Assembly (NCBI GenBank): GCA_963708135.1
Contig: OY970192.1
Location: forward strand, 768,001 to 832,000
Direction of reading: 5' to 3'
Origin: an uncultured Gemmatimonadales bacterium
GTDB lineage: Bacteria > Gemmatimonadota > Gemmatimonadetes > Longimicrobiales > RSA9
DNA length: 64,000 bases
Below, piece by piece: positions 3,561 through 62,029 of this stretch. The translations under genes and the position numbers were made by a program. Below the pieces are notes generated by a model. That model ran no database searches, was not told where the DNA came from, and saw only the letters and a program-made list of their open reading frames with translations. Each line of letters opens with the position of its first letter. Position 1 is the first letter of the stretch.

Positions 3561-4929
3561 AACACGCACCCTGGCGGCAGGCGCCGCCCTCTCGCTGGTC
3601 TGGCTGGCGGCGGCGTGCTCGGGCGGAGCCGACGGCGCGCCGGCGGCGGGGGGCCCCGGCGGCGCGCCGGCGGCCGGCGCGGCGGGGCCCGGCGGCGCGG
3701 CCTCGAGCCCGATGGTGACGCTGGCGTCCACGGACGTGCTGACGCTGCACCCGATGGCGCTCTCGGAGTCCACCCCGGTGACGGGGAACCTCGTGCCGGT
3801 GGACCAGGCGGAGCTGCGGGCGCGGCTGGAAGGCGACCTGGTGGCGGTGGGCGTGCGCGAGGGCCAGCACGTGCGCGCGGGCGAGGTGCTCGCGCGCTTC
3901 GAGGACAGCGCGCAGCAGAGCGCGCTGCGGAGCGCCGAGGCGGGCGTGGCCGCGGCGCGCACCGACGTCTCCACGGCGCAGTGGACGCTGGATCAGACGA
4001 AGAGCCTCTACGAGCAGGGCGCGGTGGCCGAGCAGGACCTGCGCGGCGCGGAGCAGCAGGCGGCGGCGGCGCGCGCGCGGCTGGCCGCGGCGGTCGCGGC
4101 GCAGCGCGCGGCCGAGCTCACGGCCCGCGACACGCGCGTGACGGCGCCATTCGACGGCGTGATCGACAAGCGCGACGTGAACGCGGGCGAGCACGTGGCG
4201 CGTGGTGGCGCGCTGTTCACGATCGTGCGCAACCAGGTGCTCGAGCTGACGGCGTCCGTGCCCGCGCGGCGGGCGCAGGGGGTCGAGCCGGGGCAGCAGG
4301 TGCAGTTCACGGCCGACGCGGCGGCCTTCCAGGGGCACGTGGCGCGGGTGAGTCCGACCATCGACCCGACGACGCGCTCCGTCACGGTGTACGTGGAGGT
4401 GCCGAACCCGGACGGCCGGATCAAGGGCGGCACGTTCGCCACGGGGCGAATCGTGCGACGGGTGATCCAGGGTGCGCTGGCGGTGCCGACCTCCGCCGTG
4501 CACCAGGCGCCGGGGACGGGGCAGACGTTCGTGTACCGGGTGGCGGGCGAGGTGCTGGACGAGACCCCCATCACGCTGGGCGCGGTGGACGAGGCGCAGG
4601 AGATGGTGCAGGTGGCGGCGGGACTGCACGACGGCGACCAGGTGGTGATCGGCAACGTGGGCATGCTGGGCAAGGGCATGCGGGTGCAGGTGCTCGGCAC
4701 CGAGAGCCGGACGGGCATGGGCGCCGGCAACGCCCCGGCGCCCGCGGCGGATGATCCGCCGGCTCCGGCGGGCGCGAATGCGGCGGGGGCCGGCGCCGGG
4801 CGGCCGCGCTCCGCGGCGGGAGGGAGCGCGCCGGCGGGGGCGGGCAAGAAGGCGGCCGGCACGTCGGCGGCGGGCGGCGCGCCGCGCCCGGCCAGCGGGC
4901 CGGGCCACCTGGCTCCGGAAAGGAACTGA
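3553..4929 (+). CDS. RND efflux periplasmic adaptor (MFP), lipoprotein
   Basis: LAAAC lipobox-like, APFDGVI, SPTIDPTTRS; Ala/Pro/Gly-rich tail. Confidence 0.88.
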   Translation: MNRTRTLAAGAALSLVWLAAACSGGADGAPAAGGPGGAPAAGAAGPGGAASSPMVTLASTDVLTLHPMALSESTPVTGNLVPVDQAELRARLEGDLVAVGVREGQHVRAGEVLARFEDSAQQSALRSAEAGVAAARTDVSTAQWTLDQTKSLYEQGAVAEQDLRGAEQQAAAARARLAAAVAAQRAAELTARDTRVTAPFDGVIDKRDVNAGEHVARGGALFTIVRNQVLELTASVPARRAQGVEPGQQVQFTADAAAFQGHVARVSPTIDPTTRSVTVYVEVPNPDGRIKGGTFATGRIVRRVIQGALAVPTSAVHQAPGTGQTFVYRVAGEVLDETPITLGAVDEAQEMVQVAAGLHDGDQVVIGNVGMLGKGMRVQVLGTESRTGMGAGNAPAPAADDPPAPAGANAAGAGAGRPRSAAGGSAPAGAGKKAAGTSAAGGAPRPASGPGHLAPERN

Positions 4930-40534: not shown

Positions 40535-41107
40535 CGTGTCCGTCCGGCAGACGCCCGAACTCGCCCCAGTCCACCTGCGCGTGATACCCGGCGCCGTTTC
40601 TTAGCGCACCGTCAGCTCTTCCAGCCGGTGCCGCTCCGTGCGCAGCGGCCGCACGAACGCCTTGAGCTGGGTGATCTGCCCCGAGTAGCCCTCGGCGCGG
40701 ATCTCCCTCAGCAGCACCGTGACGGGCAGCTCCGGGAGCTTCTTCAGCCGCGCCTCCACATACGCCTTGTACGGATCGAGTAGCGTCCGTCGCGGCGGGC
40801 GCGGACCCTAGGCCGGCGGCTCCTCACCCCTCAGGTACCGCCGCACCGTATTCCGGCTGAGCCCCGTCTCGCGGCCGATCGCGCGGATCGAGCGCTCGCC
40901 ACGCACCATGCATTGAATGTCCAACCAGGCCTCCGTCGAGATCATCCCGGCCTCCGGCTGCGTCACCATCACGAGGGTCCGGGATCGGAAGGTAAGCGTT
41001 TCGAGTCGTGGTCTCCGCGGCTGCGCCGCTACGACCCGACTCACCCGCCGCAGGGTGGGTCAGTTTTCAACCGACGCGAGTGGGTCAACTTTCAACCGGC
41101 GATGACA
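40535..41107 (-). mobile_element. istA: IS21-family remnant: left end plus decayed istA 5' part (ATG at 40945)
   Basis: Terminus TGTCA at 41107 with tandem GGGTCA.TTTTCAACCG-like repeats. Translation SIRAIGRETGLSRNTVRRYL..LLDPYKAY..GYSG..ETAPG/AQVDWGEF has two stops and a frameshift. Confidence 0.85.
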
Positions 41108-41212
41108 ACGCCGAAGAAGAAGGTGCTGGTCGGCATCGCCCGCAAGGCGACGCGCATGATGTTCCGGGTCGCGGTCGAGCGGCGGCTGTACACGGCCGAG
41201 CCGCCGCGGTAG

Positions 41213-41710
41213 GATGACGTAGCAGACAGGCTGGGGCGGGGCGCCGCTGCGCGCTCCCGCTTCCGGCCCGTGCACCGGGTCCAGGCCGGGGCAGAGCGCG
41301 CGAAGATGGATCGAAGGGACCCGCGTGGTCCGCTTCCGAGTGTGGCATTCGCGTACCCCGGCCCTGAGCACGCTCAAGTCTCCCATGTGGGGGTGTTGAG
41401 GGCCCTGCGGGGCGCCTCCGAATACCGACGCGATCGAGCTACGCGTGCTCATGTGGCCGGGGTGCGATTTGACAACAGGAGTCATCCTTTCAGGCGAGAG
41501 GAGCACCGCGTGCTCGCCGGGATGGTGGCCGGGCGTGGATCCGAGGCAGCACGTGAGGGGAGCGATGTCTCCGCCTCCGTCGAGTCGGCTGATCGCGCCC
41601 GGTCCACTCCCGTTGCTGTGACGCGCGGCTGAGGGGCCGGTGCGGATCCGATAATCTGGTCGAGGCGCACCCCGTGCGGCCTCCAAGGTGGCACTCGATC
41701 GCACCGGCCC
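41213..41710 (+). ncRNA. putative bridge/seek RNA of IS110-A (donor-like loop plus 2 target-like loops)
   Basis: Conserved blocks AGTCTCC, ATCGAGCTACGCG, GTGCGATTTGACAAC; stem-loops at 41526-41606 and 41635-41710. Confidence 0.7.
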
Positions 41711-41717
41711 ATCTGGG

Positions 41718-41957
41718 TCACTCTGCCAGCAGTTGGACTTCGAGTATCTCGCCGACCCCCGCCGCGGCGGCCGCTGTTCGATCGACGGAGTCGGGGTCCA
41801 CTGAGCCCCAGTTCAGAACTTCAAGGACATCGTACACAACCTCGCGCCCCGGGGAGTGTGGGTCTACAGACAGAATCTTGGCGACGACCACCTGACCATC
41901 GGCAAACCGCATCCGGACCCTCTGGTTTGCCAGCGGGATGAGTTCGGTAGCCTTCAT
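41718..41957 (-). CDS. putative immunity protein
   Basis: Small ORF directly after the Rhs tip; AGGAG RBS; alternative start at 42008. Confidence 0.65.
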   Translation of the reverse strand: MKATELIPLANQRVRMRFADGQVVVAKILSVDPHSPGREVVYDVLEVLNWGSVDPDSVDRTAAAAAGVGEILEVQLLAE

Positions 41958-41992
41958 CCTTTGCTCCTGTAGAAGTCGCGAGTACCCGGAGA

Positions 41993-42505
41993 TCACTTCC
42001 ACATCCATCGTTGGATGAGGAGGTGGACATTCCCACCAGTCAGTCTATTCTCCAAATTTCCGACCAATTCGCCCGCGTTGAAATGGCCCGCCGGCTTGAT
42101 CTGCGGCGCACGATAGACTCGATCTCCCGCGACTCGACCGATCTCGGCGCCCGCTCCACGAGCGGCTCGAATTGCGCGCCCTCCAGCGGTCCATATGCGG
42201 CCTGCGATGGTAGCCTCTAATTCACTACCGAGCCGAACGGTGACGTTTTTGACCGCGCCTGCCGCCGTTTCCAGAGCGCGTCCAACGCGTCCAGCTGCTC
42301 TCGCGACAGGAGGCATAGGGAGCATCGCCGTCATGCAGGAAATCGACTCAGCACACGTTGCGAGCACGCCACCTGCGTAGTTCAGCGCAGCGTTGCCTTC
42401 TCCCGTGGCGAGACGGTGCGCGTACCACTCTGACGTGCCCGCTTCACAGTTGTTGAAGTCATCATCGGCAGGCGGACACGAACCGAAGGGATCCGTGTAA
42501 GACGC
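41993..42505 (-). pseudogene. orphan Rhs C-terminal toxin tip (possibly an RNase)
   Basis: Open frame beginning ASYTDPFGSCPP, no start codon of its own; ends RVYRAPQIK..NLE..NVHL. Confidence 0.8.
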
Positions 42506-42815
42506 ACCCCTCTACCGCGATTGCCCCGCCTTCCGGCCGACCCAGCAATTCAGCGATCTTATTCGTCTCAAACAGCGTCCCGTACCGTGACCCTGCAGGT
42601 GCAACCCTGAACCGTATCGCTGGGCTGCCGATCGGCTGAAGCCGGGTGGTCGATTCATCGACGTGCTCGGGATTCGCCTCCAGCCTGGCCGGCGTTACGG
42701 TCAACGGTTCGGCTCCGAGCTCCCCACGGCAGGCCTCGGCCGCCGTCTGACCGCGTTTTCTGTCATCGTCCGGTTCACGGTACGTCCCCGGCTCACCTCA
42801 ACCGGGAGACGCACC

Positions 42816-44048
42816 ATGAGCCACTACAAGAAGCGCCAGAGGGCCCAGCGAGCCGCCGCCGTGGTCGGGATCGACGCCGCAAAGCGCAGGCACGCGATGG
42901 TCGTGCGGCCGCGCGGCGGCGAGGACTCGACGCCGATGTTCTTCGAGGCGACGCGCGCCGGCTTCGGCAAGGCCCTGGAGGAGATCGAGGCCTGCGCCCC
43001 TGACGCCGAGCGGCACGAGATCCTGGTCGGCATCGAGTTCGCCGGGAACTACGGCTTCACGCTGGCGCACCACTTCGCGGCCGAGGGCCTCCAGGTCGTG
43101 AGCGTGCTCGGCTCGCACTCGAAGAAGTGGAAGGAGGTCGTCCACAACCAGAGCCTGAAGAGCGACCCGGCCGACGCCGTCACGATCACCGACCTGGCCA
43201 GCCAGGGGCACTTCGTGATCTTCCCCTTCCTCGAGCAGGTATTTGCAGACCTGCGCTACCTCGTGAGCCTGCGCGAGCGCCTGACGAAGCTCCGCACGGG
43301 CGCCATCACGCGCCTCAAGGACGTGCTCCAGGTCGTGTGGCCGGAGTTCGACCGCCGCTTCGGCAACTTCAACCACAAGACGCCGATCGCGCCCCTGGAC
43401 GCCTTCCCGGGGCCCGACGCGCTCCTGAAGGCGTCCAAGCGCCGCATCATGACCGTGCTCCGGAAGGCGAGCCGCGGCCACCTCGGCGAGAAGGCCTATC
43501 AGGAGCTCCGGCACATGGCGGAGCACACCGTCGCCCTTCCGGGGGCCCAGGGCGTGCTCAAGGACGAGATCGCCCTCCAGCTCGAGCTCCTCGCCACCTA
43601 CGAGCGGCAGATGGCCGAGGTCGAGCGGCTCATGGCGGAGTCTGTGTCGAGCGTGCCTGAGGGCGAGGCACTCCTTACGATCCCGAAGCTCGGGGCCGTC
43701 ACCGCGGCGACGTTCCTCGGCTCGATCGGCGATCCGCAGGTCTACGAGTCCAGCCGTCAGGCACTCCGCGTCGGCGGACTGTCGCTCGTCGTCCACGAGA
43801 GCGGCAACCGGCACGGGCGTCCGCGGCTCTCCAAGCGGGGCCGCCCCGAGCTCCGGCGCCAGATGTACATGTTCGCGCTCCGGAGCGTCTCCAACCGGTC
43901 CCTCTACCACGACTACTACCGCCGCATGCTGGAGCGGAACGGTGGCGAGAAGATCCCCGCGCTGGTCGCCGTGATGCGCAAGGCGGCGCGCCTCATGTTC
44001 AGCGTCGCGAAGGACCGGCGCGCCTTCACCATGGAACCACCGCGGTAG
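42816..44048 (+). CDS. IS110-family DEDD recombinase
   Basis: GIDAAK, GIE, KSDPADA (DEDD) and C-terminal HESG..LSKRG..LR. Confidence 0.93.
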   Translation: MSHYKKRQRAQRAAAVVGIDAAKRRHAMVVRPRGGEDSTPMFFEATRAGFGKALEEIEACAPDAERHEILVGIEFAGNYGFTLAHHFAAEGLQVVSVLGSHSKKWKEVVHNQSLKSDPADAVTITDLASQGHFVIFPFLEQVFADLRYLVSLRERLTKLRTGAITRLKDVLQVVWPEFDRRFGNFNHKTPIAPLDAFPGPDALLKASKRRIMTVLRKASRGHLGEKAYQELRHMAEHTVALPGAQGVLKDEIALQLELLATYERQMAEVERLMAESVSSVPEGEALLTIPKLGAVTAATFLGSIGDPQVYESSRQALRVGGLSLVVHESGNRHGRPRLSKRGRPELRRQMYMFALRSVSNRSLYHDYYRRMLERNGGEKIPALVAVMRKAARLMFSVAKDRRAFTMEPPR

Positions 44049-44602
44049 CTCGGGGGAATAAACGGTGTGAGAGGGTCGGCTGGCGCGGACGCGCGCCGGC
44101 CCTCTCCGACCCAAGTGCACCCGACGCACGCCGGGGAGTTGCGCCCGAGAATGGATCGAGGAGGCCGCCCTTCGAGCGGCGGCCGGCCTCCGAATGCGGC
44201 ACACGCGCACCCCGGCCGGGAAGGCGCCCCAGTCTCCGAGATAGGGGTGTCGAGGGCTCCCAGGAACGCTGGCAGAACCGCGTTCCCGAGCGCCTCCTAC
44301 TTTGACCGCGATCGAGCTACGCGTCTTCATGCGGCCGGGGTGCGATCTGACAACACGGTTGCGGTTTCGCCCGGCGGGAGCGGCTCGCCGGGCGCGGACA
44401 CTCGCCTGGACGCGGATCCCGAGCGGCACTCGAGGGGAGCACAGCCTCTGCCTCCGAACAGGCCCCAGATCGCGTCCCGGCACCCTCTCCCCCGCCCCTG
44501 TGCGAGCAGACGGGGAAGAGGTGCACGAGGGGCCGGTGCGGATCCGATAATCCGGTCGAGGCGTCATCCGACGGCCTCCGAAGAGGCACTCGATCGCACC
44601 GG
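44049..44602 (+). ncRNA. putative bridge/seek RNA of IS110-B (donor-like loop plus 2 target-like loops)
   Basis: Donor-like loop 44243-44309; stem-loops 44405-44480 and 44533-44602. Confidence 0.75.
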
Positions 44603-44604
44603 GC

Positions 44605-44892
44605 CTACTCCGAAATCCCAAAGCGTGCTCTCGCATCCTCGGGAGCCACATTGATGAGCAACGGCGGTCCTCCACCGGGTAATTCGCTGTGGGGATAAGT
44701 CAGTACCCAAAAGCGTCCGTCCTTGGCGCGATACATGACGCTCCACCCATCATCTGAGCGCGCCACTTCCGTGATTTCGTGCGTAGTGATGATACGCTCA
44801 ATTCGACGGCATTCGTCGTCAGGGACAAGGCGGCCGTCCTGATCAACCCAAGTTCCGGTGATGACCGTTTCGTCTGGCTGAATGAGAGTCAT
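44605..44892 (-). CDS. immunity protein, Imm27-like
   Basis: GWSVMY..DGRFWVLTYPHSELPGGGPP; overlaps the toxin stop (ATGA). Confidence 0.8.
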   Translation of the reverse strand: MTLIQPDETVITGTWVDQDGRLVPDDECRRIERIITTHEITEVARSDDGWSVMYRAKDGRFWVLTYPHSELPGGGPPLLINVAPEDARARFGISE

Positions 44893-45404
44893 GGGATCTT
44901 CCTTATCAGGGCCTCAAACGGAATCGTGCCGTTGGGGATTACGAATTCACGAGCACCACCTGAAGTAAGTCCACGCCCGACGAAGCCCGGTGTCTTTCGG
45001 CCGACGGGAGAAGCAATCGCCTCGATGGCCGAACTCGGGAATTCAATGATGTTGAAGCCGAAGGGGCTTTCTGGGATCCCCAACCGAGTGGCAATCTCCT
45101 TCGACCCCATCCCCGCTATATCCTCGGCGGCCGTGACAAACACATCTTCGGCGCCAGCTCGCCCCAACGTTGCTGGAACAATATTCCCGGGAACGACGCG
45201 AGCAAGGACACTTGGGACAGCATTGGCTACTTCCCGACCGAGCAAGCGCCTTCCGAAGTCCGCAATGCCGCCTGCAATTCCGCCCGCGAGAACAGCGATG
45301 GGATCGAAAAATCCGGCGCTTTCAAGGCCTGGTTCGCCGCCGGGACACCCCGTATGCCACTCAGTCTCTGGGGGACACAATCCGAAGGGATCTGTATATA
45401 CCGG
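44889..45404 (-). pseudogene. orphan Rhs toxin tip, Ntox10-like
   Basis: Begins PVYTDPFGLCPP; contains DVFVTAAEDI and PGFVGRGLTSGGAREFVIPN. Confidence 0.8.
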
Positions 45405-45574
45405 ACGCCTCTAACCCAATGCGCCCCGTTTCGGCCTCAGACACCTCCCGCCGGACTCTACCTCCAGCCGTCTCAATCAGCCGTCCTGACACCCCCCCGA
45501 ACACCGAAGCCCTTCAGCATACCACCTAAAGTTCCATCGCCTCAGGCGCCCTCAGCCGCCGTCGATCCGCCCGG

Positions 45575-47011
45575 GGAGGTATTTTCAGAAGTTGTGGATC
45601 GCGTGACTTGATGGGGTGAAAAAAGGCGGCGTATCCTTCCGCGTTGGTTCGTTCACCGAAACGCGAAGCCCCGCTGGCCGGCGGGGGGAAGGAGACGCCA
45701 CCCATGCTGAAGCTATTCATGGACGCCCCTGCGGAGCAAGCGGGGGGGCTGGAGTTCACGCTGGACGAGCTCGCGCGTGAGGGCGCGCGGCGGATGCTGG
45801 CGGTGGCGCTGGAGGCGGAGGTGGCCGCCTACGTGGAGCGCTACCGGGGCGAGCGGGACGAGGCGGGACACGCGCTCGTGGTGCGCAACGGGAAGGCGCG
45901 GCCGCGACGCGTGACGCTCGGGGCCGGGACGGTGGAGGTCGCCGCGCCGCGGGTGAATGACCGACGGGTGGTGGAGGGGACGCGCCAGCGCTTCACGAGC
46001 GAGATCCTGCCGCCGTACATGCGGCGCAGTCCCAAGGTGGCGGAGGTGCTGCCGGTGCTCTATTTGCGCGGGCTCTCGACCGGGGACTTTCAGGAGGCGC
46101 TGCGGGCGCTGCTCGGAGCGGAGGCCACAGCGGGGCTGTCGCCGAGCGTCATCAGCCGCCTGACTGGAGCTTGGGAGGAGGAGTACCGGGCCTGGCGGCG
46201 GCGCGATCTCTCGGACCGAGACTACGTCTACGTCTGGGTGGACGGGGTGCATTTCCGGATCCGGCTGGAAGAGGACCGCCTGTGTGCGCTCGTCGTGATC
46301 GGAGTGCGCCCGGACGGGACCAAGGAGCTCGTGGCCATCGAGGACGGCTACCGCGAATCGACGGAGAGCTGGGCGGCGCTCCTGCGCGATCTGACGAGGC
46401 GCGGCATGCGCCCTCCCGTCCTGGCCGTAGGGGATGGCGCGCTCGGCTTCTGGGCGGCCGCGCGCGACGTCTGGCCCGACACGCGGGAGCAGCGCTGCTG
46501 GGTGCACCGGCTGGCCAACGTGCTGGACAAGCTGCCCAAGCGGCTCCAGCCGAAAGCGAAAGCGCATCTGCGCGAGATCATGAACGCGGAGAGCCGCGCG
46601 GCGGCCCAGGAGGAGATTGAGCGCTTCCGCGAAGAGTACGGCGCCAAGTACCCCAAGGCGGTGGCGTCCCTCGTGCGCGACCAGGACCAGCTCCTGGCCT
46701 TCTTCGACTTCCCGGCCGAACACTGGAAGCATCTGCGCACCACCAATCCGGTGGAGAGCACCTTCGCGACCGTGCGGCTCCGGCAGCGGGTGACGAAGGG
46801 AGCGGGCTCGAGAACGCGCGGGCTGGTGTTCGCCTACAAGCTCCTGGACATGGCCAGCCAGCGGTGGCGGCGCCTCGACGGCGCCCACCTCCTCCCCCTC
46901 GTTCGGGCGGAGGTCCAGTTCACCGACGGCATCATGCAAGAGAGGGAGGATCAAGAAGGGCGGAGGAGCGCCGCCTGATCACCCCAATCCACAACATTTG
47001 ACAATAGCTCT
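45575..47011 (+). mobile_element. IS256-family element
   Basis: Imperfect terminal IRs (GAGGTATTTTCAGAAGTTGTGGAT / GAGCTATTGTCAAATGTTGTGGAT); 8-9 bp target duplication (T)CCGCCCGG. Confidence 0.92.
45704..46978 (+). CDS. IS256-family transposase
   Basis: LYLRGLSTGDF, YVWVDG, GDGALGFW, QRCWVH, RTTNPVES. Confidence 0.93.
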   Translation: MLKLFMDAPAEQAGGLEFTLDELAREGARRMLAVALEAEVAAYVERYRGERDEAGHALVVRNGKARPRRVTLGAGTVEVAAPRVNDRRVVEGTRQRFTSEILPPYMRRSPKVAEVLPVLYLRGLSTGDFQEALRALLGAEATAGLSPSVISRLTGAWEEEYRAWRRRDLSDRDYVYVWVDGVHFRIRLEEDRLCALVVIGVRPDGTKELVAIEDGYRESTESWAALLRDLTRRGMRPPVLAVGDGALGFWAAARDVWPDTREQRCWVHRLANVLDKLPKRLQPKAKAHLREIMNAESRAAAQEEIERFREEYGAKYPKAVASLVRDQDQLLAFFDFPAEHWKHLRTTNPVESTFATVRLRQRVTKGAGSRTRGLVFAYKLLDMASQRWRRLDGAHLLPLVRAEVQFTDGIMQEREDQEGRRSAA

Positions 47012-47162
47012 CCGCCCGGATTCCGTCACCACTCCGGCGGTGATACGCTTCCGGGTTCGGGCTCAAACCCGGCAGGCGCCGCTCACAACGCCATTCAGCC
47101 CGATTCCGCCATCGGTGCGGCCCACGGTACCGCTCTGGTCCACTTCAACCAGGAGCGAGACC

Positions 47163-48398
47163 ATGAGCCGTTTCGAGAAGCGCCGCCGGGCCCAGCGCGC
47201 CGCCGCCGTCGCCGGAGTGGACGCGGGCAAGAGGAAGCACGCGATCGCCGTCCGGCCGCGCGGCGGCGAGGACAGCACGCCGCTCGAGTTCCAGACGACG
47301 CGGGAGGGCTTCGAGATCGCCGTCCACGCGATCCTCGACAACGCGCCCGACGCGCGGCCGGAGGACGTGCTGGTCGGCATCGAGTTCGCCGGCAACTACG
47401 GCTTCACCTTCGCGCACTTCCTGCGCGACCGCGGCTTCCAGGTCGTGAACGTGCTCGGCGCGCACAGCAAGCGCTGGAAGGAGGTCGTCCACAACCAGGG
47501 GCTGAAGAGCGACGCGAAGGACGCGCTCACGATCACCGACATGGTGGCGCAGGGCGCCTTCGTCGGCTTCCCGTTCCTCGAGCAGGTCTACGCCGACCTG
47601 CGCTACCTGGTCAGCATGCGCGAGCGCCTGACGAAGCTCCGGAGCGCGACGATCGCGCGGCTGAAGGACGTGCTCCAGGTCGTCTGGCCGGAGTTCGAGC
47701 GGCGCTTCAGCAACTTTAGCAAGAAGACGCCGATCGCGATCCTGGAGGCGTTCCCCGGGCCGGATGCGTTCCTGCGCGCACCGAAGCGGCGCGTGCTGAA
47801 GGTGATCCGGGAGGCGAGCCGGGGTCATCTGGGCGCGGCCGCCTACGAGCACCTGCGGTGCGCGGCCGAGGACACCGTGGCGCTCCCCGGCGCGCAGGGC
47901 GTGCTTGCGCAGGAGGTCGGCCTCCAGCTCGATCTCTTGGCCTCCTACGAGCGCCAGATCGCCGAGGTCGACCGCCTCATGGCCGAGCGGCTCGTGGACG
48001 CGCCCGAGGCCGAGGCGCTCCTGTCCGTCCCGAAGCTCGGCGCCGTCACGGCCGCCGTGTTCCTGGGCTCGATCGGCGACCCGCGGGCCTACGACTCCAG
48101 CCGGCAGGCGCTCAAGGTCGGCGGCCTCGGGCTCGTCGTGAGCGAGAGCGGCGCCCAGCGCGGCCGGCCGCGGCTCCCCAAGCGCGGCCGGCCCGAGCTC
48201 CGGCGCCAGATGTACATGTTCGCGGTGCGGAGCGTGAGCCGGGGCGGCCTGTTCCGGGCGGAATACGAGCGGGCGCTCGAGCGCAATCCGAACACGCCGA
48301 AGAAGAAGGTGCTGGTCGCGCTCGCGCGGAAGGCGACGCGGCTCATGTTCGCGCTCGCGAAGGAGCGGCGGCTGTACACGATGGAACCGCCGCGGTAG
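47163..48398 (+). CDS. IS110-family DEDD recombinase
   Basis: GVDAGK, GIE, KSDAKDA, SESG; clear paralog of 42816-44048. Confidence 0.93.
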   Translation: MSRFEKRRRAQRAAAVAGVDAGKRKHAIAVRPRGGEDSTPLEFQTTREGFEIAVHAILDNAPDARPEDVLVGIEFAGNYGFTFAHFLRDRGFQVVNVLGAHSKRWKEVVHNQGLKSDAKDALTITDMVAQGAFVGFPFLEQVYADLRYLVSMRERLTKLRSATIARLKDVLQVVWPEFERRFSNFSKKTPIAILEAFPGPDAFLRAPKRRVLKVIREASRGHLGAAAYEHLRCAAEDTVALPGAQGVLAQEVGLQLDLLASYERQIAEVDRLMAERLVDAPEAEALLSVPKLGAVTAAVFLGSIGDPRAYDSSRQALKVGGLGLVVSESGAQRGRPRLPKRGRPELRRQMYMFAVRSVSRGGLFRAEYERALERNPNTPKKKVLVALARKATRLMFALAKERRLYTMEPPR

Positions 48399-49042
48399 GT
48401 TGGGGGAATCAACACCATGGGAGGGCCGGCTGGCGCGGTGCGCGCCGGCCCTCCTACAGTGCACCAGACGCAGGCCGGGGGATGGAGCAGAAGAATCCAT
48501 CGAAGGGGCCGTCTCGCACGAACGTGAGGCCTGCTTCCCAAGGTCGGACCCGCTCCCCCTGACCCAGAGTTCGCCACAGTCTCCGAGGAAGGCGTGTCGA
48601 GGGCCACGCGCGGCAGACGCCGCCACGGTGCCTCCGAGGACTTGAGGGTATCGAGCTACGCGATCTCGAGTGGTCTGGGTGCGATTTGACAACTCAGCGC
48701 TTGCCTTCGCCGTCGCGGCGTCGAGCCGGCCGCGACGGAACGGGTGGCGTGTGCCCGGCGCGGATCCGACATCCAGCCTGAGGCGGCCCAGCCGGCCTCC
48801 CATGATGGACCTGATCGCGTCGGGCACCGTCCTCCTCATGGGCATCGGCCCGGCATGGACCCGATAATCCGGATGAAGGGCGCTCTGCGGCCTCCCATGT
48901 GGGACTCGGTCGTGCCGGGCCCCGCCTCCCCGCCGGGCTGGCCGACGGGGAGGTGAGCCGAACCGGGGCCTGTGTGGATCGGGGGATCCGACAGAGGCGC
49001 GAACATCGCGGCCTCGGAAAGTGACACTTGATCGCATCGGCC
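48399..49042 (+). ncRNA. putative bridge/seek RNA of IS110-C (donor-like loop plus 3 target-like loops)
   Basis: Donor-like loop 48590-48648; stem-loops 48751-48827, 48847-48921 and 48967-49042. Confidence 0.75.
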
Positions 49043-49055
49043 TCTTCGCTGGTCG

Positions 49056-49457
49056 TCATCGGTACTCCTCCTCCAAGCGTTGCAGTAGGGCAGTAAACTC
49101 AGCTACAGCCTCCGGAATCCCCTCGCCCAAGTCCTCGTGGAAGTAGTCGCGGAAGAGTAGATCTGGCCAGATCCGCGTCTGCCCAGGCGCGGTGGTGTCG
49201 ACGCGCCAATATCGGGAAGCCCGGCCATCTACTATCTCGAACAGTGAGATCGGTGCCCAGGAGAGCTTCCCATGCTCATTGACGAGGTGCAGCCATGTCC
49301 CGGTGCCCAAGACGTTGGAGTCAACCGAGAATTGGACTCCAACTACCATGTAGGTCTTCCCCAATTCCAATGCGAACTCATGGGCATCAGCAGCTACTCG
49401 GCCCATCCGCATCCGCTGCTCGGCGGTCGGCGAAATGGAGACACACTTGGCTCGCAT
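49056..49457 (-). CDS. putative immunity protein
   Basis: Start overlaps the toxin stop (TAATG); lower GC. Confidence 0.72.
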   Translation of the reverse strand: MRAKCVSISPTAEQRMRMGRVAADAHEFALELGKTYMVVGVQFSVDSNVLGTGTWLHLVNEHGKLSWAPISLFEIVDGRASRYWRVDTTAPGQTRIWPDLLFRDYFHEDLGEGIPEAVAEFTALLQRLEEEYR

Positions 49458-50011
49458 TATCTGAATACCGTTTTGAATTCCACCCGCACACCGGTTACGA
49501 GGTTTTCGACCCAGTGTGTCTCGAACCGGACTCCGTCGTCTGCCCTAAATATGCTACTACTCTTCTTGACCCAGTCTCCTGCCTCGCCTCCGTACTGCTC
49601 AGCTATCCTGCCAGCATCCCGAAACACGGTTCCGGATCGACCACCGGCAAAGATGGTCCCTCGCTCCGCCATCTGCGCTTTGCTGGCGATCTGTTTCGCC
49701 AGGTTGAGGGCTTCGCCACTTCTGCCGACGCCGCCGATGAAGGCCCCGGGCGAGCCGCACAAAACACCTTCACCACAACCGCCCCCCATAAGGTCGTTGA
49801 AGGTCTGTTCTCCGGCTTCAAGAGCTGCGCCCACGTTCAGCGCCCAAGAACGGCCGGTTCGAGACCCCCAGTTGGCCAGTAATTGGTAACAGGATTCATC
49901 GGAACCGGTGAAGGGACACAGCCCGAACGGATCGGTATAGGAGGCCGGATTATCCCCGTTGTAGCTGTAGAGGTTGAGCCCGCCCGCAAGTCCAATGGGG
50001 TCTTCCTGCGT
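49457..50011 (-). pseudogene. orphan Rhs toxin tip with short core remnant
   Basis: TQEDPIGLAGGLNLYSYNGDNPASYTDPFGL followed by a variable tip (YGG..DWVKK..ETHW..EFK). Confidence 0.82.
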
Positions 50012-50139
50012 TAATATCCGCTCAGACGCCTCCGGCCGACTCCCGAGCCGCTATCCCTCTGTCGTTTCTTTCTTTAGCCGCTTCCTTCCCGCCTTCTTCG
50101 TCGTAGTTTTCCGCTTCAGACCTGGATGCGTGTTTTCCC

Positions 50140-55624: not shown

Positions 55625-56074
55625 TCATTCAGAGTTCAGCGGAGACTGACTGGCAACTTGCGTCGATTCCGAGAATTCCCATGCCTTAAAAGTAATCTCG
55701 ATCCACGAGTAGCCCTCGCGGCGAAATGACGCTTTGTAGCTGGGCCCGGTCAGCCGTGAACGAACCAAGGCTCCAGCATCTTCGACTCGAAGGCAAGCGA
55801 TTTCGCCGAAGCCCCAACCAAGTGATGCCTCCTTCTGCATCACTGAGTCAGAGAGTTCGTTGATAACGTGCAGTTCACTCACGCCGCAGAAGCGGATTGA
55901 CACAATACGCCGGTCAGCGTATTGGGTCCGAATCGTTCCATCCTCCTGCCACACGAAGTCAATGTCGATGCTGAGGGACGCGCCCCAGTTCAGCCACTGG
56001 ACGCCGACAACAACACACTCCTCGAAATCGCGGTACGCGTGAAGCTCTGCTCTCAATACAGGCAATCCGCTCAT
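55625..56074 (-). CDS. putative immunity protein
   Basis: ATGA overlap with the Rhs stop; lower GC. Confidence 0.72.
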   Translation of the reverse strand: MSGLPVLRAELHAYRDFEECVVVGVQWLNWGASLSIDIDFVWQEDGTIRTQYADRRIVSIRFCGVSELHVINELSDSVMQKEASLGWGFGEIACLRVEDAGALVRSRLTGPSYKASFRREGYSWIEITFKAWEFSESTQVASQSPLNSE

Positions 56075-59040
56075 CGATTCCAGATGTTAAGATGCGTGGT
56101 CGCGTTGGGACCAGGGTTACCCAGCGCGTCGAGATAGTTGCGAGCTGCATTCATGATGCGCAGTTGCCAACCATTTTCCCGCCGCATTAAGCGAACTTCT
56201 TCGCCCGTTCCATTCGTGAAAAGGTAGCCACTCTTATTCTCCGTCAGTCCCATCACAAACCCGTTCTCTTTCAGAATTGCGCGAATTCCAATGATCGACT
56301 CATCCGCAAGTCCGCCTCCCTCCGAGAACAGCGCGCGTAGCCCGGCGCTCGCTCCCCGTAGCCCCCGCCCGACGGCACCACCACCCACCGTGAATGCCGC
56401 CATTGCGAAGCCGCGTCCGGCGTGACCACTCCCGATATCGAAGCCAGCATCAAACGCTGCGGTGATCGGATTGACATCGTTGATCGCATTCAACCCAGCT
56501 GCGGCATTGAGCACCACGCCGCCCAGGCCACCGCCACGCTGCGCTCCCCAATTTGCCGCTTTCTGCAAGCAATCTTCAATCGGCGGGCACAATCCGAACG
56601 GGTCGGTATAAGACGCGGGGTTGTTGCCCGCATACGCATAGAGGTTAAGCCCGCCGGCAAATCCGATGGGGTCTTCCTGCGTGAACCTCCCCAATCTGGC
56701 GTCGTAGTAGCGGTTGCGGAAGAAGGCTCCGGTCTCCTGGTTCGAGTCGCCGTTGCGGGCGGGGGCGAAGCTGTAGCTTTCGCGGATGGCACCCGACTGC
56801 GAGCCCCAGGTACTCCACGCCGGGAGCTCGTTTCCGTTCGTGTCCGTGATGCAGTTCTCGCCCTGCGGGCCCTGGAAGCTGAACAGTCGTTCGCGATGCG
56901 TGATGAAATATGCGCGCTTGTCGTTCAGGCTGCCGAGGGGACACGCAGCGTTGCCGTACATCATCAGCGGGTCGTCGAGCCCCGGCCCGTCCACGAACTC
57001 GACCGTCGAGTGCTCGATCACGTTCTGACCATCGTAGAAGGTCTCCGCGCCGGAGTGGGCATAAGCGCCGCGGATCCGCCGGCCCAGGCCGTCGTAGCGG
57101 AAGAAGGCGGTATCGGGGTGAGTGCCGGAGAGCTGGCCGGCGGCGCTGTAGTAGCGGTGCCAGGTGTAGGCGGTCCCGGCGTAGGTGCCCTGCTCGAGCG
57201 TCTCGTTGCCGTTCGCGTCGTAGCTGAAGTCGACGCTCTCCGGACCGGAGACGCCGCTGTAGTAGCGGGTCCGGCGGGTCACCTCGTTCGAGAGGCCGTC
57301 GAGCTGGAAGAGCACGCTGTCGGCGCACAGGCTGCCGCGCACGCACAGGTACTCCTTCACGCGGTTGCCGGCCGCGTCGTGGACCAGGCTGTCCATGGAG
57401 GCGTAGGTGCCGTTCTTCATCTGGTCCGTGTAGCGGATCTTCCCCCGGTGGTCGTAGGCCCAGTGGCTGACCCACGTCCCTCCGTTCGTCTCCCGGCCCC
57501 GGTTCACGACCGAGTCCGGCCGGCCCGCGGCGTCGTAGGCGAAGGTAAGGTCCACGGGCGTGTAGCCCGTCGTCGCATTGACCGAGACGACGCGCGCGAG
57601 CTGCCCGTCCTTCGTGTAGCCGTAGCTCGTCTTCGTGCCGTTGGGCAGCGAGACCGTGTCGCGCCGGCCGAGCGCGTCGTAATGGAAGGAGATCACCTCG
57701 CCCGCCGGCGTCTGGATCTGGCTGACGAGCCCGCCCGGGCCGAAGGTCGAGGTGTAGGTGCCCTTCGGCGTGGTCCGCGTGTGCCGGCCCGCCCACTGGT
57801 AGGCCGACGTGTACGTCCGCGTCGTTCCCGACCACTTGTGGAGCTGGACGCTCGAGGCGAGGGTGCCCTCGCGGTTGAAGGTGCGCGTGACCTTCGAGCT
57901 GTCCTCGTCGAGCACGGTCGGGTTGCCGGCGGCGTCGTACTGGAGGTCGATCGTGGTGCCGCGCACGCCGAGGACACCGCCCTGGTAGGTGCTCGAGAGA
58001 ATCCGCTGCTTCGGGCGGTCGTCGCCGTCGTAGTGGATCGTGACGGTGCTGCCGTCGCGGTTCGTGCCCAGGGTGAGGTTCCCGGCGAGGTCGTAGGCGT
58101 CGAGCTGGGTGGCCCCCTTGGCGTCGACCATTGCCGTGTCCTCGCCCAGGGCGTTGTACTGCCAGATGCGGGCGAGCAGGCGGGGGTCTGACGCGCCAAT
58201 GCGGTTACCATCCGCATCGAACGTGAAGCGGCTGGGGCGTATGAGGCCGTGGTCGTACTGGTCGACCTCGGTCCGGTTGCCGAGAAGGTCGTGCACGAAG
58301 GTCGTGCTGTCACCGGCGGGGTCGCTCACGCGGCGCAACAGCCCGTAGGCGTCGTAGCCGTAGCTGGTGGTGTCGCCGCCGGGCGTGGTGCTCGAGAGCA
58401 GGTTGCCGGTGCCGGAATCGTCGTTGCCGAGCATCGTGGTGAGATCCTGCACGCCGGCGCCGTAGACCGGCACGGAGTGCTCGGTCGCGCTCGCCACCTG
58501 GCCGCGGCTGTTGTACGTGAAGCTGGTCTCGTGCCCGCGCGGGTCCACGACGTTGTCCAGCGTGCCGTCCGTGGCGTTGTAGGTGAAGGTGGTGGTGTCC
58601 CGGTGCGTCCCGTCGCGCGGCTCGATCAGCTTCCACGGCTTGTCAGGCGCCGCCGTCGAATACCGATAGGTCACCGAATCCGCGCCGGCGCTCGACGTGA
58701 GGTCCGCGGCGTAGGCGACCCGGCCGGAGCCGTCGTAGGCGGTCGTGGTGGTGCGGCCGTTCGGCCAGTCGACCTCCTTCGTGAGCAGGGGGAAGCTGGC
58801 GTCGTGCTTCAGGACGGTTGTATTGCCCACGGCGTCGACAACCGTGTCCGGCGCGCCGAAGCGGTCCAGGTAGAACTTCGTGATCTGCAGGGTGTCCGTG
58901 CGCGGCCCGTGCACCTCGAAGTCGGCGCTCGCGGCCGCGTAGCTGGCGTTGAGGCCGGTGGCGGCGGTGGCAAGGCCGCGGCTCGCGAGAGGAGTAAACG
59001 TCGTGACCGGCGTTCCGGCCGTGACCTGCGGCAGGGTGTC
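56071..59040 (-). pseudogene. rhs: 5'-truncated Rhs/YD-repeat protein with toxin tip
   Basis: Many YDxxGR repeats and the core motif RNRYYDARLGRFTQEDPIGFAGGLNLYAYAGNNPASYTDPFGL. The ORF-track extension to 59454 reads through ncRNA and immunity DNA. Confidence 0.88.
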
Positions 59041-59292
59041 GGCCTCCCACGATGGACCTGATCGCGTCGGGCACGCCCCTCCTTCGCACTCATGGCCATC
59101 GACCCGGCATGGACCCGATAATCCGGGCGAGGCGCGCTCTGCGGCCTCCCATGTGGGACTCGGTCGTGCCGGGGCCCCACCTCCCCGCCGGGATGACCGA
59201 CGGGGAGGTGAGCGGAACGGGGCCGGTGTGGATCCGATAATCCGGTCGAGGGGTCTATGACCGCCTCCAATCTCGGACTCGATCGCACCGGC
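59041..59292 (+). ncRNA. truncated target-loop array (half a loop plus two full loops)
   Basis: Stem-loops 59103-59173 and 59221-59292, both with ATAATCCG. Confidence 0.7.
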
Positions 59293-59293
59293 T

Positions 59294-59596
59294 CTACTCG
59301 CTTGGTTGGTTCCGCAGCAAGTCCCAGAGGCGTTCGCGAAGATGATCGAGGGTGGCATTCGCAACCGCTTCATCATCAACTGAATGGCCGTTTGCGCGGC
59401 TAATCCAAAGATCGGTGAAGCTGCCCATGCCTCCGAACAGTGCGCGGGCGTCATCGCAAATGTCCGGGCAATTTAGTTTTGATCTATGCTGGTTCAATAT
59501 TGAATCAACCATCGAAGCCCACCCGGTTTCGTTGTGTCTACGTAAAAACTGCTCAATATCCTTGAGCACAGCTTCAACGTCCGCGTGTGCCGCCAT
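59294..59596 (-). CDS. putative immunity protein (DUF6966-like)
   Basis: ETGWA..FGGMGSFTDLWI..N..LR; GAGGAGG RBS. Confidence 0.72.
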   Translation of the reverse strand: MAAHADVEAVLKDIEQFLRRHNETGWASMVDSILNQHRSKLNCPDICDDARALFGGMGSFTDLWISRANGHSVDDEAVANATLDHLRERLWDLLRNQPSE

Positions 59597-59605
59597 CGGT
59601 CCTCC

Positions 59606-60193
59606 TCACGGGTGCGGGATCAGTACGCTTGGATCCCGAAGCCAGATCTGCGTCGCCCACGGAGCACCGCCAGCAACGCGACCAGTAAAGATTTCCGTTC
59701 CTTTCGGAATCACAAAACTGTTAAGTGTTTCAGCCGTTGCGCTTTCGGGCAAGTTCAGCGCGGCTCGCGCGATTTCGCCCGAAGCGATTCGGGAAACCGT
59801 TTGACGCGTGGTCAGGAAACGGCCGATCGGTCGGGAAACACCGCCGGAATATCGGTAACCGCTGACGTCACTTTGGAGAACTCTACTGCGTACGGTTCCG
59901 GCGAACGATTCAGCTACATCAGAAGCGAGGTCGCTCTTCGCAGCAGAAGCCGCGACCCGCCCGACCAACGCCTCCACCCCATGGCTCAGGAGTCCAGAAA
60001 TTCCTCCCGCGAGCAGCGCCACCGGATCGAGAAGGCCCCCGCTCTTTAGCCCTGGCTCACCACCGGGGCACCCCGCGTGCCATTCGGTTTCCGGCGGGCA
60101 CAGACCAAAGGGGTCCGTATAGGAGGCCGGATTATTCCCCGCATACGCATAGAGGTTGAGCCCGCCCGCAAGTCCGATGGGGTCTTCCTGCGT
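59606..60193 (-). pseudogene. orphan Rhs toxin tip (possible ADP-ribosyltransferase/NADase-like fold)
   Basis: TQEDP..NNPASYTDPFGL followed by YRYSG..GRFLT..LNLP..IPKGT..GRVAGG..QI. Confidence 0.78.
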
Positions 60194-60321
60194 TAATATC
60201 CGCTCAGACGCCTCCGGCCGACTCCCGAGCCGCTATCCCTCTGTCGTTTCTTTCTTTAGCCGCTTCCTTCCCGCCTTCTTCGTCGTAGTTTTCCGCTTCA
60301 GACCTGGATGCGTGTTTTCCC

Positions 60322-60543
60322 CTACGCAAAGAGGAGGCGTCCCTTCGGCGGTGGTACCTCACGACCGATGTCGCGCGCCGTCTCGATCCACTCCTCGATC
60401 ACCGTCTGCACGTTGCCCAGCGCCTCGCGATACGTGGCACCGTCGGCGGCACAGCCCGGCAGCTCGGGCACCTCGGCGATGTAGGCATCGTCCTCCTCGC
60501 TCCAGTAGAGGATGATCTCGTAGCGTGGGTCAGTCTTCGCCAT
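60322..60543 (-). CDS. hicB: HicB-family antitoxin
   Basis: Protein identical to copy 1. Confidence 0.88.
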   Translation of the reverse strand: MAKTDPRYEIILYWSEEDDAYIAEVPELPGCAADGATYREALGNVQTVIEEWIETARDIGREVPPPKGRLLFA

Positions 60544-60796
60544 CGGCCGTGCCTCCAAGCTTGTACGTCACGATTACACGCCGGACCTGCTTCACCTGAT
60601 ACGGCTTCGCCAGCTTGCCCCTGGGCTGCAGGTTCAGGATCTCCGCGATGCCATCACGCAAGTAGATGTGATGGCTGCCGCGGATCCGCTCCTCGAAGCC
60701 GAGCGCATGGAGCAGACGCCGCAGATCCTGGAAATCGATGGCGCTGTCGGAGGTTCCCCGCAGCAGCCGCGCCAGGATCTTGTCGATCTGCGTCAT
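60530..60796 (-). CDS. hicA: HicA-family toxin
   Basis: Protein identical to copy 1. Confidence 0.88.
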   Translation of the reverse strand: MTQIDKILARLLRGTSDSAIDFQDLRRLLHALGFEERIRGSHHIYLRDGIAEILNLQPRGKLAKPYQVKQVRRVIVTYKLGGTADGED

Positions 60797-61066
60797 GCCG
60801 AAAGATAGCGTGCCGGCTCCTCGCGCGGGACCACCAAGGTGCGGGGCAGGTTTACGTAACCCGGTTACGTAAAGGGCCAGAGGCCCCCAGCGCAGGCGCG
60901 GCGAGGCCGAGTGCGCATAATCCCGGGATTATGCGCACCGAGCGAAAGCGAGGGGACCCGGCCGGTCCCGAGCGAGAGCGAGGGCGGCGCGCCGGAGCGC
61001 AGCCTGCGCCGCACGCGCCACGCTGCCGGCCCTGCCACCACCACCCTAAATAGACAAGCAAAGCAG

Positions 61067-62029
61067 CTAAAGAGAGGAGGGGTGGGTGGGCCGTGTGAGA
61101 TGGGCCGGGTGAGTGCGGGCGTGCACCTGCTTGAGGCGGGCGATGGAGACGCGGGTGTAGAGCTGGGTGGTGGAGAGCTGGGCATGACCGAGCATCTCCT
61201 GGATGTCGCGGATGTCGGCGCCGCCCTCGAGCATGAGGGTGGCCATGGTGTGGCGAAAGAGGTGGCAGGAGCCGCTCTTGCCGAGGTCAGCCGCGGCCAC
61301 GTAGCGGCGCACCAGCTCAGAGAGACGATTGGCCCGGAGCCGCCGTCCGCGGCGGGAGAGAAAGAGGAGTCCGTGATCGGGCGGCACGAGCAGGTGCGGC
61401 CGCACATCCGAGAGGTAGCGCTGGGCCCAGGCGAGCGCCCGCTCCCCGACGGGCACCAGCCGGTCGCGTCGTCCCTTGCCCTCGCGCACGAAGAGACTGC
61501 CGCGGGCAGGATCGATGTCCACCAGGCGGAGCCGGATGAGTTCGGTGCGACGGATCCCGGTCGAGTAGAGCACCTCGAGGAGCGTGCGGTCCCGCACCCC
61601 GAGCAGGGTTGACAGATCCGGCTGCGCAAGCACCCGCTCCGCTTCGTCGCTGGTGAGCACGGCGCCGGGCAGGTGATGGGCTCGCCTGGGCAGCTCGAGG
61701 TCGGCCGCGGGGTTGTAGGGCAGGCGGTGGGTCCGCACGAGCCACTTCAACAGGCCCTTGATGGCGATGAGCTTCTGCGCCTGTGCGCCCCAGCCCAGCG
61801 GCTGTCCGTTCTTCTGCCGCTGCTGGAAGAGCGCCGTGCGATAGCGCTCGAGGAGCGGCAGCGAGAGATCCTGCACGGTCTCGACGCCGCGCTCCTCGCA
61901 CCAGGTGCGGAAGTGGTTCAGGTAGCTTTTGCGGCTGCGCACCGTGTGCGGCGAGTAGGCCGCGGCCGCAAGCGCGGCCAGGTGCAGCGCGATGAGCGTG
62001 GCGAGTTCGCTCTCCGCGGCCGCACTCAT
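61067..62029 (-). CDS. XerC/XerD-type tyrosine recombinase
   Basis: One amino-acid difference from copy 1 (PDLF vs PDLS). Confidence 0.93.
   Translation of the reverse strand: MSAAAESELATLIALHLAALAAAAYSPHTVRSRKSYLNHFRTWCEERGVETVQDLSLPLLERYRTALFQQRQKNGQPLGWGAQAQKLIAIKGLLKWLVRTHRLPYNPAADLELPRRAHHLPGAVLTSDEAERVLAQPDLSTLLGVRDRTLLEVLYSTGIRRTELIRLRLVDIDPARGSLFVREGKGRRDRLVPVGERALAWAQRYLSDVRPHLLVPPDHGLLFLSRRGRRLRANRLSELVRRYVAAADLGKSGSCHLFRHTMATLMLEGGADIRDIQEMLGHAQLSTTQLYTRVSIARLKQVHARTHPAHLTRPTHPSSL

Follow-up and report, generated by a model that had tools for sequence, protein, structure and literature searches.

Orphan tip-immunity arrays of Rhs and CdiA systems consist of displaced modules downstream of a full-length rhs gene, with tip switching by homologous recombination. 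Piv invertases switch the 3′ segments of pilin genes by inversion between fixed sites and are not known to use a guide RNA or to move cargo. Here we describe a repeated transposase-RNA-toxin unit in a 64,000-nucleotide (nt) stretch of contig OY970192.1 (positions 768,001–832,000, forward strand; assembly GCA_963708135.1), hereafter the window. The host is a soil bacterium, an uncultured member of the Gemmatimonadales whose genome is one 5.45-Mb contig. The guide RNA of the unit appears to read the unit's own ends and the end of an rhs gene, and each jump would give that gene a new toxin. The closest described systems are the bridge RNA elements of the IS621/IS110 group (Durrant et al. 2024, PMC11208160; Hiraizumi et al. 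2024, PMC11208158), the seekRNA elements of the IS1111 group (Siddiquee et al. 2024, PMC11187229), for which Piv-type DEDD invertases are named as relatives, and the expanded, cargo-bearing IS110 loci of a preprint (Hu et al. 2026, 10.64898/2026.08.14.744561), described there as forming tandem arrays by repeated insertion at occupied sites.

IS621 resembles the unit in having a DEDD and Tnp-domain recombinase, a structured RNA in which one strand of each loop reads the bottom strand left of the core and the other the top strand right of it, and separate donor and target loops with guides of 3–7 nt on one side. The predicted target loops of the window likewise hold two guides on opposite strands that flank the core, and the predicted donor loop would read the left end (LE) with its 5′ strand and the tip-side end with its 3′ strand. 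Unlike in IS621, the RNA here lies downstream of the gene, with the donor loop first and up to three target loops, the two target-loop guides occupy reversed positions within the loop, the second core base appears not to be shared, and the right end (RE) lies inside a coding tip that travels as cargo. Shared with IS1111 are a long 3′ non-coding region after the transposase gene, a conserved repeated sequence as target and the guide order, in which the match to the top strand comes 5′ of the match to the bottom strand. A candidate counterpart of the IS1111 subterminal inverted repeats (7–17 bp) is imperfect, gapped and unscored here. The transposase of the unit has 410–411 amino acids (aa) against 330–350 aa in IS1111 and so falls outside that size range, the right repeat arm consists of rhs YTDP codons, the cargo is natural and several target loops are present. 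The element belongs to the IS110 family, and its RNA is laid out as in IS1111. The loci of Hu et al. also combine passenger-gene carriage by the IS110 family with tandem arrays, but their cargo is mostly plasmid DNA and resistance genes, with one-sided donor matches, whereas ours have a fixed tip and immunity pair, matches in both donor halves and an in-frame gene fusion; the preprint text contains neither ‘Rhs’ nor ‘toxin’. A right end in coding sequence, a fixed tip and immunity cargo, in-frame fusions and more than one target loop set the unit apart from the IS110 members compared. As in orphan Rhs/CdiA arrays, displaced tip and immunity modules follow a full-length rhs gene and tips start at the DPxGL boundary, but here an RNA-guided recombinase element bounds each module and guides would set the exchange point. 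Like Piv, the unit has a recombinase of the same superfamily that would alter the stretch of a surface or weapon gene that encodes the C-terminus; Piv differs in that it inverts DNA between fixed sites and has neither a guide RNA nor mobile cargo as far as is known. A full-text literature search, with subscription journals and bioRxiv supplements outside its coverage, returned no report of an IS110 or bridge RNA element with Rhs tip cargo.

The unit is present three times (A, B and C) between positions 41,000 and 50,010 of the window, in the order left non-coding end, transposase gene, ~550–640 nt of non-coding sequence and, on the opposite strand, a small open reading frame (ORF) and an ORF of 160–170 aa with the start xYTDPFG(L/S) (Table 1). 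The sense of rhs runs from high to low plus-strand coordinates, high being upstream. Two further copies, D (truncated) and E, sit just outside the window, giving the array order A, B, C ... D, E-rhs, and the tip of E is in frame with a 1732-codon rhs open frame (window-equivalent 72673–77868). The cargo has the form of an Rhs tip and immunity module, with a tip that starts at the PxxxxDPxGL boundary and a small immunity gene after it. The B and C transposases combine an N-terminal PF01548 (DEDD/RuvC-like) with a C-terminal PF02371 (Transposase_20) domain and score 185 and 178.6 bits against NCBIfam NF033542, ‘IS110 family RNA-guided transposase’ (cut-off 140); all three copies belong to the RNA-guided IS110 family and carry a non-coding RNA 3′ of the transposase gene. 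The left part of A is missing, and unrelated sequence with a minus-strand ORF at 40808–41044 (window 40600–41100) truncates it on that side.

Relatives were collected from a phylum search of 401 genomes, in which the transposase was found in 11 including the host genome, and from a metagenome scan with an alignment of 11 proteins (142 relatives, 78 loci kept); these alignment-based and phylum-wide scans replaced a genome scan with a single protein that gave one locus. The comparative set, drawn from 10 genomes and 78 metagenome contigs, holds 91 elements (79 after duplicate removal), 54 with a right junction and 40 with a tip-type left junction. RNAalifold, covariance models (CM) for loop 1 (R1; 92 matches, one a weak cross-hit to a module) and for the downstream modules (R2; 167 matches), and stem covariation point to a structured RNA with stem-closed internal loops in the element's non-coding end. 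In alignments fitted to the models, 93.5% of cells in the loop 1 stems are paired with double changes in 14 of 19 pairs, and 97.5% in the module stems with double changes in 13 of 16, with 0 of 500 shuffles as good in either case. Rfam at gathering thresholds gave no match in the window or in seven related loci. Junctions were located without reference to guides: reading on the strand of the insertion sequence (IS), the reverse complement of the D codon of DPxG is followed by 10 nt of tip, 2 nt of core, and then LE or the right flank. The final tip-start pattern gave one spurious site (L067), and wrong sites for C and L042 were corrected from the sequence.

The sequence-only reading of the window had proposed that the first loop of this RNA covaries base by base with each element's own two ends. 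The strings it quoted all lie where it placed them, and loop 1 has the form AGTCTCC-[5′ strand]-GT-YGAGG...CCTCC-[3′ strand]-ATCGAGC in A (41377–41445), B (44231–44323) and C (48578–48662), where it is flanked by two stems with covariation among copies. Its right guides do match the ends: GACCGC of B (44304–44309) contains ACC+GC, the tip-side end ACC (45400–45402) plus core; TGAGGG of C (48643–48648) contains GAG+GG, the GAG at 49941–49943 plus core; and CGACGC of A (41426–41431) contains GAC+GC, found as GACGC at 42501–42505, where the first three nucleotides (42501–42503) are the last of element A. In each element the far end falls within the Rhs tip ORF, at a distance of 10 nt from the DPxGL D codon, and its last three bases are GAC in A, ACC in B and GAG in C. 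Copies D and E obey the same rule (GAG), and all five copies in the host genome fit. Guide matches in the window span 4–7 nt, too short for significance alone, and one 7-nt match, between the left flank of B and 44321–44327 (I12), was rejected as part of a covarying RNA stem; with matches this short and one such coincidence, the sample was enlarged to relatives.

Covariation persisted in the larger alignment. In 50 of 54 elements, and in 29 of 33 unique pairs, the trinucleotide just before the core in the loop 1 3′ strand is identical to the final 3 nt at the tip-side end (92 of 99 positions; permuted mean 39.3, maximum 61; 0 of 10,000 permutations as high), and 14 types occur (GCT, GCA, GCC, GAC, GAT, GAG, GAA, GTT, TTC, TTA, TTG, TCC, CTT, ACC). 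Per position, the three nucleotides and the first core base match at frequencies of 0.96, 0.96, 0.94 and 0.92, against 0.62, 0.35, 0.34 and 0.70 when permuted, and this per-position comparison gave no right-guide signal beyond them. Compared instead with the tip in the left flank, the trinucleotide matches in only 3 of 23 unique pairs. The left guides, which had been said to equal the ends, sit at the right positions, but the relation is reverse complementarity, of AGGGGT in B (44243–44248) to ACCCCT (42506–42511) and of AGGCGT in C (48590–48595) to ACGCCT (45405–45410), so that ‘equal’ has to be taken as complementary. Across the family the 5′ strand complements LE over its first five or six bases, and positions E+1 to E+5 match in 0.85–0.96 of pairs. 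The claim that guides change exactly as ends change therefore stands for the 3 nt and first core base of the right guide, and for the left guide shrinks to a single base between B and C. Loop 1 is the predicted donor loop, reading both element ends.

A search for long inverted repeats between LE and either candidate right end gave only weak pairs, which were treated as chance; one of them, I4, has 75% agreement over 24 nt and lies within the Ntox10 ORF. A candidate subterminal inverted repeat, imperfect and gapped, pairs LE ACCCCTAT..CC.GAT with ..CCTATACCGATCC, the tip-side end read as its reverse complement (for example 42506–42522 with 45388–45402). Its consensus, from 27 LEs (CCTAT..CC.GAT) and 50 REs (ATC.GG..ATAGG), is unscored against chance. 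The right arm of this repeat consists of the (A/S)YTDP codons, so that every Rhs tip start resembles a right end.

The derived boundaries place the core at 42504–42505 before LE of B at 42506, at 45403–45404 before LE of C at 45405, and at 49944–49945 after the end of C at 49943; the boundaries named in the sequence-only reading (42506, 45405 and 49945) agree to the base with these guide-free junctions. The first core base matches loop 1 (0.92). The second shows no covariation, which places the crossover within the 2-nt core, and the proposed mapping to about 1 bp holds at that resolution and not strictly. A fixed-register 2-nt core was rejected, its second base being inconsistent. The odd P-V codons at 45403–45404, which had been put down to the crossover position, do follow from a GG donor core meeting a GC target core, and the same reading would restore an in-frame ..NPAVYTDP.. 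for B before the arrival of C.

One to three modules follow loop 1 in each element and share its architecture. The 5′ strand of the B module, GATAATCCGGT (44546–44556), is the reverse complement of [AC]CGGATTATC, the rhs core-end, and its 3′ strand, GAAGAGGCACT (44580–44590), agrees with the left junction TAAGACGCAC (42498–42507) in 8 of 10 positions; written for the last module of B, the 5′ strand is GAUAAUCCGGU, whose reverse complement, [A/G]CCGGATTATC, spells the rhs codons GAT AAT CCG G. The reverse complement of the 5′ strand of C module 2, TCCGGATTATC, matches GCCGGATTATC at 49944–49954 in 10 of 11 positions. The rhs core-end matched by these loops lies beyond the immunity gene and tip, not right after the RNA. 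The 3′ strand of a module has the sense of the left flank, core and AC, the last being the first two nucleotides of LE (0.87 and 0.81), which are invariant bases; loop 1 against the right flank gives 0.22 and 0.10. These are the places of IS621-type handshake bases, which adjoin the guides and pair with the other DNA once strands have been exchanged. Exact 9-mer matches to the left flank occur in L014, L015 and L016, and a T-to-C change in L015 is mirrored in its guide. With the best module picked alike for cognate and non-cognate pairs, the 3′ strand matches the left flank in 4.83 of 6 positions against 2.97 (0 of 10,000 permutations) and the 5′ strand matches the right flank in 6.27 of 10 against 5.22 (2 of 10,000 permutations); cross-controls are low (3/23 and 2.29/6). 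At tip-flanked sites the module that fits is the last one (11 of 11 two-module elements), and at non-tip sites it is the first (3 of 3). The downstream loops are the predicted target loops, in which one strand reads the rhs core-end and the other the displaced left tip.

A module of copy D, ATACCGGAC, matches the left flank of C in 9 of 9 positions: the 3′ strand of the last module of D, GATACCGGACT (L005 2436–2504, window-equivalent ~69140–69215), fits the C left junction ATACC[GG]AC (45396–45406) throughout, and the RNA that placed C may have resembled that of D. The third module of C (48969–49040) has a guide of another type, with 5′ strand GGGGGATCCGACA, and resembles the modules of other lineages, in which the rhs core-end is CGGATCCCC; copy E has a B-like module in its place.

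A tip start lies within 2.5 kb downstream in 36 of the 42 elements that have at least 1500 nt of downstream sequence, and four of the six that lack a tip-start match have H or L in place of Y/F, so that probably 40 of 42 carry a tip. The distance from last module to tip start is 709–1166 nt in nearly all elements (median 894 nt). Among 53 right junctions, 18 run on in frame into a long rhs core, the longest of 1504 codons, and 19 adjoin the LE of another element; core-end fragments, non-rhs sites and contig ends make up the other 16. Tip sequences are diverse, with 49 distinct ones all different; 48 of the 49 start x[YF]xDPxG(L/S), they are 146–177 aa long, and eight have a Pfam toxin or hydrolase domain (Ntox10, Colicin_E5, YkuD, NLPC_P60, CHAP, Peptidase_M15_4/VanY or eCIS_core). 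On metagenome contig L064 a whole unit, immunity gene and tip included, occupies a non-rhs site, GTGAGAA[AC]TCACAGCA, both halves of which match the first module of that element (3′ strand GGAGAAACAC, 5′ strand GUGCUGUGAGC). What the first module targets outside rhs is a near-palindrome, GTCGTGAGAA AC TCACAGCA, beside repeated CTCACAG motifs and without an Rfam match; it lies at 4880–4897 and 7816–7835 of L064 and occurs also in L087, L081, L088, L056, L062 and L063.

Three independent lines place the Rhs tip inside the element, as the sequence-only reading had it: the donor loop reads the tip start as right end and not the tip in the left flank (3/23), the target loops match the left flank of LE and the rhs core-end beyond immunity gene and tip, and L064 is a complete unit with its tip at a non-rhs site that fits the first target loop. 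The mobile unit thus very probably comprises LE, transposase gene, non-coding RNA, immunity gene and Rhs tip, with its right end in the tip ORF.

Several results weigh against this account. The right-end guide spans only 3 nt and one core base, and L001, L045a and L047 break the right-end rule (a fourth, L067, reflects a spurious motif call). For the left guide, covariation is confined to the one informative position, E+3 (0.96 against 0.66), the other paired positions being conserved. The second core base matches in 0.41 of pairs against 0.40 when permuted, and the left core often differs from the right one, as in several lineages, whereas in IS621 donor and target have an identical core dinucleotide, found at both junctions and read by all four guides. 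None of the three modules of C matches its left flank past the core (3 of 6 positions), and the modules of E likewise miss the left flank of E. Near-identical backbones carry unrelated tips, as in C and E (93.2% identity over 2118 nt) or B and L045 (92.8%), which implies that cargo is exchanged by some route outside this explanation. The loci are related, so that the permutation figures overstate independence. Neither a circle junction nor an empty site nor a transcript was seen in the public runs, which are assembled contigs (five runs, all Logan contigs, with no RNA data set listed among them); four runs over 41000–50100 gave no RE-to-LE joint, a result uninformative on circles or expression. 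A joint 48963>44529 in X1 is most simply copy E aligned on C and B.

The short right guide and the exchange of cargo between near-identical backbones would also suit an element whose usual mobile form is a compact IS, the tip and immunity gene having been captured one-sidedly by ‘half-match’ recombination of the kind proposed for expanded IS110 loci, with loop 1 adapted since and the long form moving rarely or never. The cargo-bearing IS110 loci of Hu et al. (10.64898/2026.08.14.744561), with mostly one-sided donor matches, would be a precedent, and contig X2 joins 44604 to 45382 with other sequence between. We nevertheless consider this unlikely: both donor halves match in the family, no compact copy was found (a tip is present in 36 of 42 elements, probably 40), the long form occurs at a non-rhs site, and 18 of 53 elements are fused in frame to long rhs cores. 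X2, a wetland metagenome contig, tracks a relative of B (~90–95% alike) to the RNA end at 44604 and rejoins it at 45382, as if the same backbone held another cargo. The tips of B (44889–45402), D and a further cassette, X (59600–60113; described below), have a common first 45–60 residues, YTDPFGLCPPETEWH.GCPG.EPGL...LAGGI, and then diverge, which suggests mosaic tips.

It is very improbable that insertion sequences stop right after the RNA and merely sit between older orphan tip-immunity cassettes made by duplication and homologous recombination, with the guide matches due to chance or shared conservation. In its favour, recombination is the classical explanation of orphan rhs tip arrays, different tips are found on similar backbones, and the window by itself offers only matches of 4–7 nt plus one 7-nt coincidence. 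The right flank that the target loops lead one to expect (CGGATTATC and variants) is, however, never found directly after the RNA and lies past immunity gene and tip, the trinucleotide rule extends over 29 of 33 unique pairs and 14 types, and L064 has its cargo at a non-rhs site with halves that match the first module. That the loop 1 3′ strand is a target guide for the resident tip rather than its own end has next to no probability, since, although tip starts are all alike (xYTDPFGL) and a tip-start guide could read either, the left-flank control (matches in 3 of 23 unique pairs, where the element's own tip gives 29 of 33) refutes it.

A mobile unit that ends within the tip could join the observed anatomy, guide and site covariation, in-frame fusions and cargo at a non-rhs site by a route of excision, circle formation and insertion. 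The donor-loop 3′ strand would carry the sense of the last three tip-side nucleotides and the first core base and, having the sense of the tip-side end, would pair with the bottom strand. The 5′ strand of each target loop would pair with the top strand right of the crossover, as the antisense of the rhs codons ..(D/N)-N-P in rhs-directed loops, and its 3′ strand would have the sense of the resident tip's first bases. The unit would leave as a circle in which the tip start is joined to LE; the circle would recombine, at a core of 1–2 nt, with the core/tip boundary of an rhs gene; the incoming tip would be fused in frame, and the old tip, its immunity gene and older elements pushed downstream. 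Repeated rounds would build the array ...A, B, C ... D, E-rhs, and the second kind of target loop would direct the unit to the non-rhs site. On balance we lean towards a broader reading, in which an RNA-guided family took a weapon-gene boundary as its right end and each hop would be a programmed in-frame replacement of an Rhs toxin together with the matching immunity gene. Its target-loop array would hold at least two address classes, the rhs core-end for ‘arming’ and the palindromic non-rhs site for ‘parking’, and the orphan tip arrays of these bacteria would preserve, as fossils, a succession of swaps guided by RNA instead of events of homologous recombination.

Table 1. Features of elements A, B and C in window coordinates; loop functions and pairings are predicted.
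Feature	Position	Strand	Details
Element A transposase remnant, IS110-family C-terminus	41114..41212	+	residues 379-410, 56% identity
Element A loop 1 (donor-binding loop)	41365..41452	+	CM R1 82.5 bits; 3′ strand GAC+GC 41427-41431
Element A target-loop modules	41530-41601, 41637-41707	+	CM R2 matches; second module 5′ strand CGATAATCTGGTC
Element A cargo	41718..42503	-	immunity-like ORF 41718-42008; Rhs tip 41993-42503, start (G)ASYTDPFGS; no Pfam match for either ORF
Core GC, A/B junction	42504..42505		junction rule, 10 nt past reverse complement of D codon
Element B, whole	42506..45402	+	left end ACCCCTCTACC, right end TGTATATACC; transposase, bridge RNA, Imm27, Ntox10 tip
Element B transposase, 410 aa	42816..44048	+	Pfam DEDD_Tnp_IS110 5.6e-20, Transposase_20 3.6e-19
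Element B loop 1 (donor loop)	44219..44330	+	CM R1 77 bits; stems covary
Element B loop 1, 5′ strand	44237-44251		AGGGGTGT, pairs with core + ACCCCT 42506-11
Element B loop 1, 3′ strand	44296-44312		ACC 44305-07, GC 44308-09
Element B target loop (module M2)	44533..44602	+	CM R2 84.3 bits
Element B cargo	44605..45402	-	Imm27 44605-44892 (Pfam 7.9e-18); Ntox10 tip 44889-45402 (3.2e-45), start (P)VYTDPFGL
Core GG, B/C junction (donor-type core of C)	45403..45404		
Element C, whole	45405..49943	+	left end ACGCCTCTAACC, right end GGTATAGGAG
IS256-family insertion nested in C left non-coding end	45565..47021	+	transposase 45644-46978, Transposase_mut 1.2e-64; 35-nt inverted repeats
Element C transposase, 411 aa	47163..48398	+	70% identical to B transposase
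Element C loop 1 (donor loop)	48566..48669	+	CM R1 84.5 bits; 5′ strand AGGCGTGT 48590-97; 3′ strand GAG 48644-46, GG 48647-48
Element C target-loop modules, three	48755-48823, 48850-48918, 48969-49040	+	CM R2 matches
Element C cargo	49056..49943	-	immunity-like ORF 49056-49457; tip 49457-49943, start (A)SYTDPFGL; no Pfam match for either ORF
Core GC 49944-45 and rhs core-end fragment TQEDPIGLAGGLNLYSYNGDNP(A), right half of target	49944..50010	-	cut off at 50010/50011 by an integrase element

Upstream of C in the rhs sense, the window holds two copies of a ~5.6-kb element (50011–~55600 and 60202–64000+) with HicA/HicB, a tyrosine integrase, a primase-helicase and an XRE-like ORF. Both are inserted at the same base of the rhs core-end (..cctgcgt|taatatcc), within the TQEDP codons; their first 300 nt including the core-end are 95% identical, and an uninterrupted site lies beside copy E. 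A second rhs type at 56071–59038, with core-end AACAACCCCGCGTCTTATACC and a 5′-truncated appearance, is joined at ~59039 to the middle of a target-loop module, followed by modules at 59104–59172 and 59223–59291 and then tip and immunity cassette X (to ~60113); as a result of this joint a 1127-aa ORF (56071–59454) runs through RNA-module sequence. Many arrays include neighbours with left ends ACATCTA.. or ACCTCTAT.., and right junctions with them occur in L035 (5783), L045, L069, L070, L074, L078, L092, L103, L107, L110, L112 and L115. These neighbours may represent sister lineages, elements of the same type with the rhs site in common.

If the unit moves as proposed, bridge or seek RNA recombination would have a natural role beyond selfish insertion, namely swapping the business end of a polymorphic toxin with the reading frame kept, and orphan tip arrays in at least one phylum would have a mechanism by which they are built. 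Several target loops in a natural bridge RNA, together with a donor end in coding sequence, would widen the known tolerance of such systems. The guide rules of the 3′-RNA branch would then be three bases and one core base at the right end and four to six bases at the left flank.

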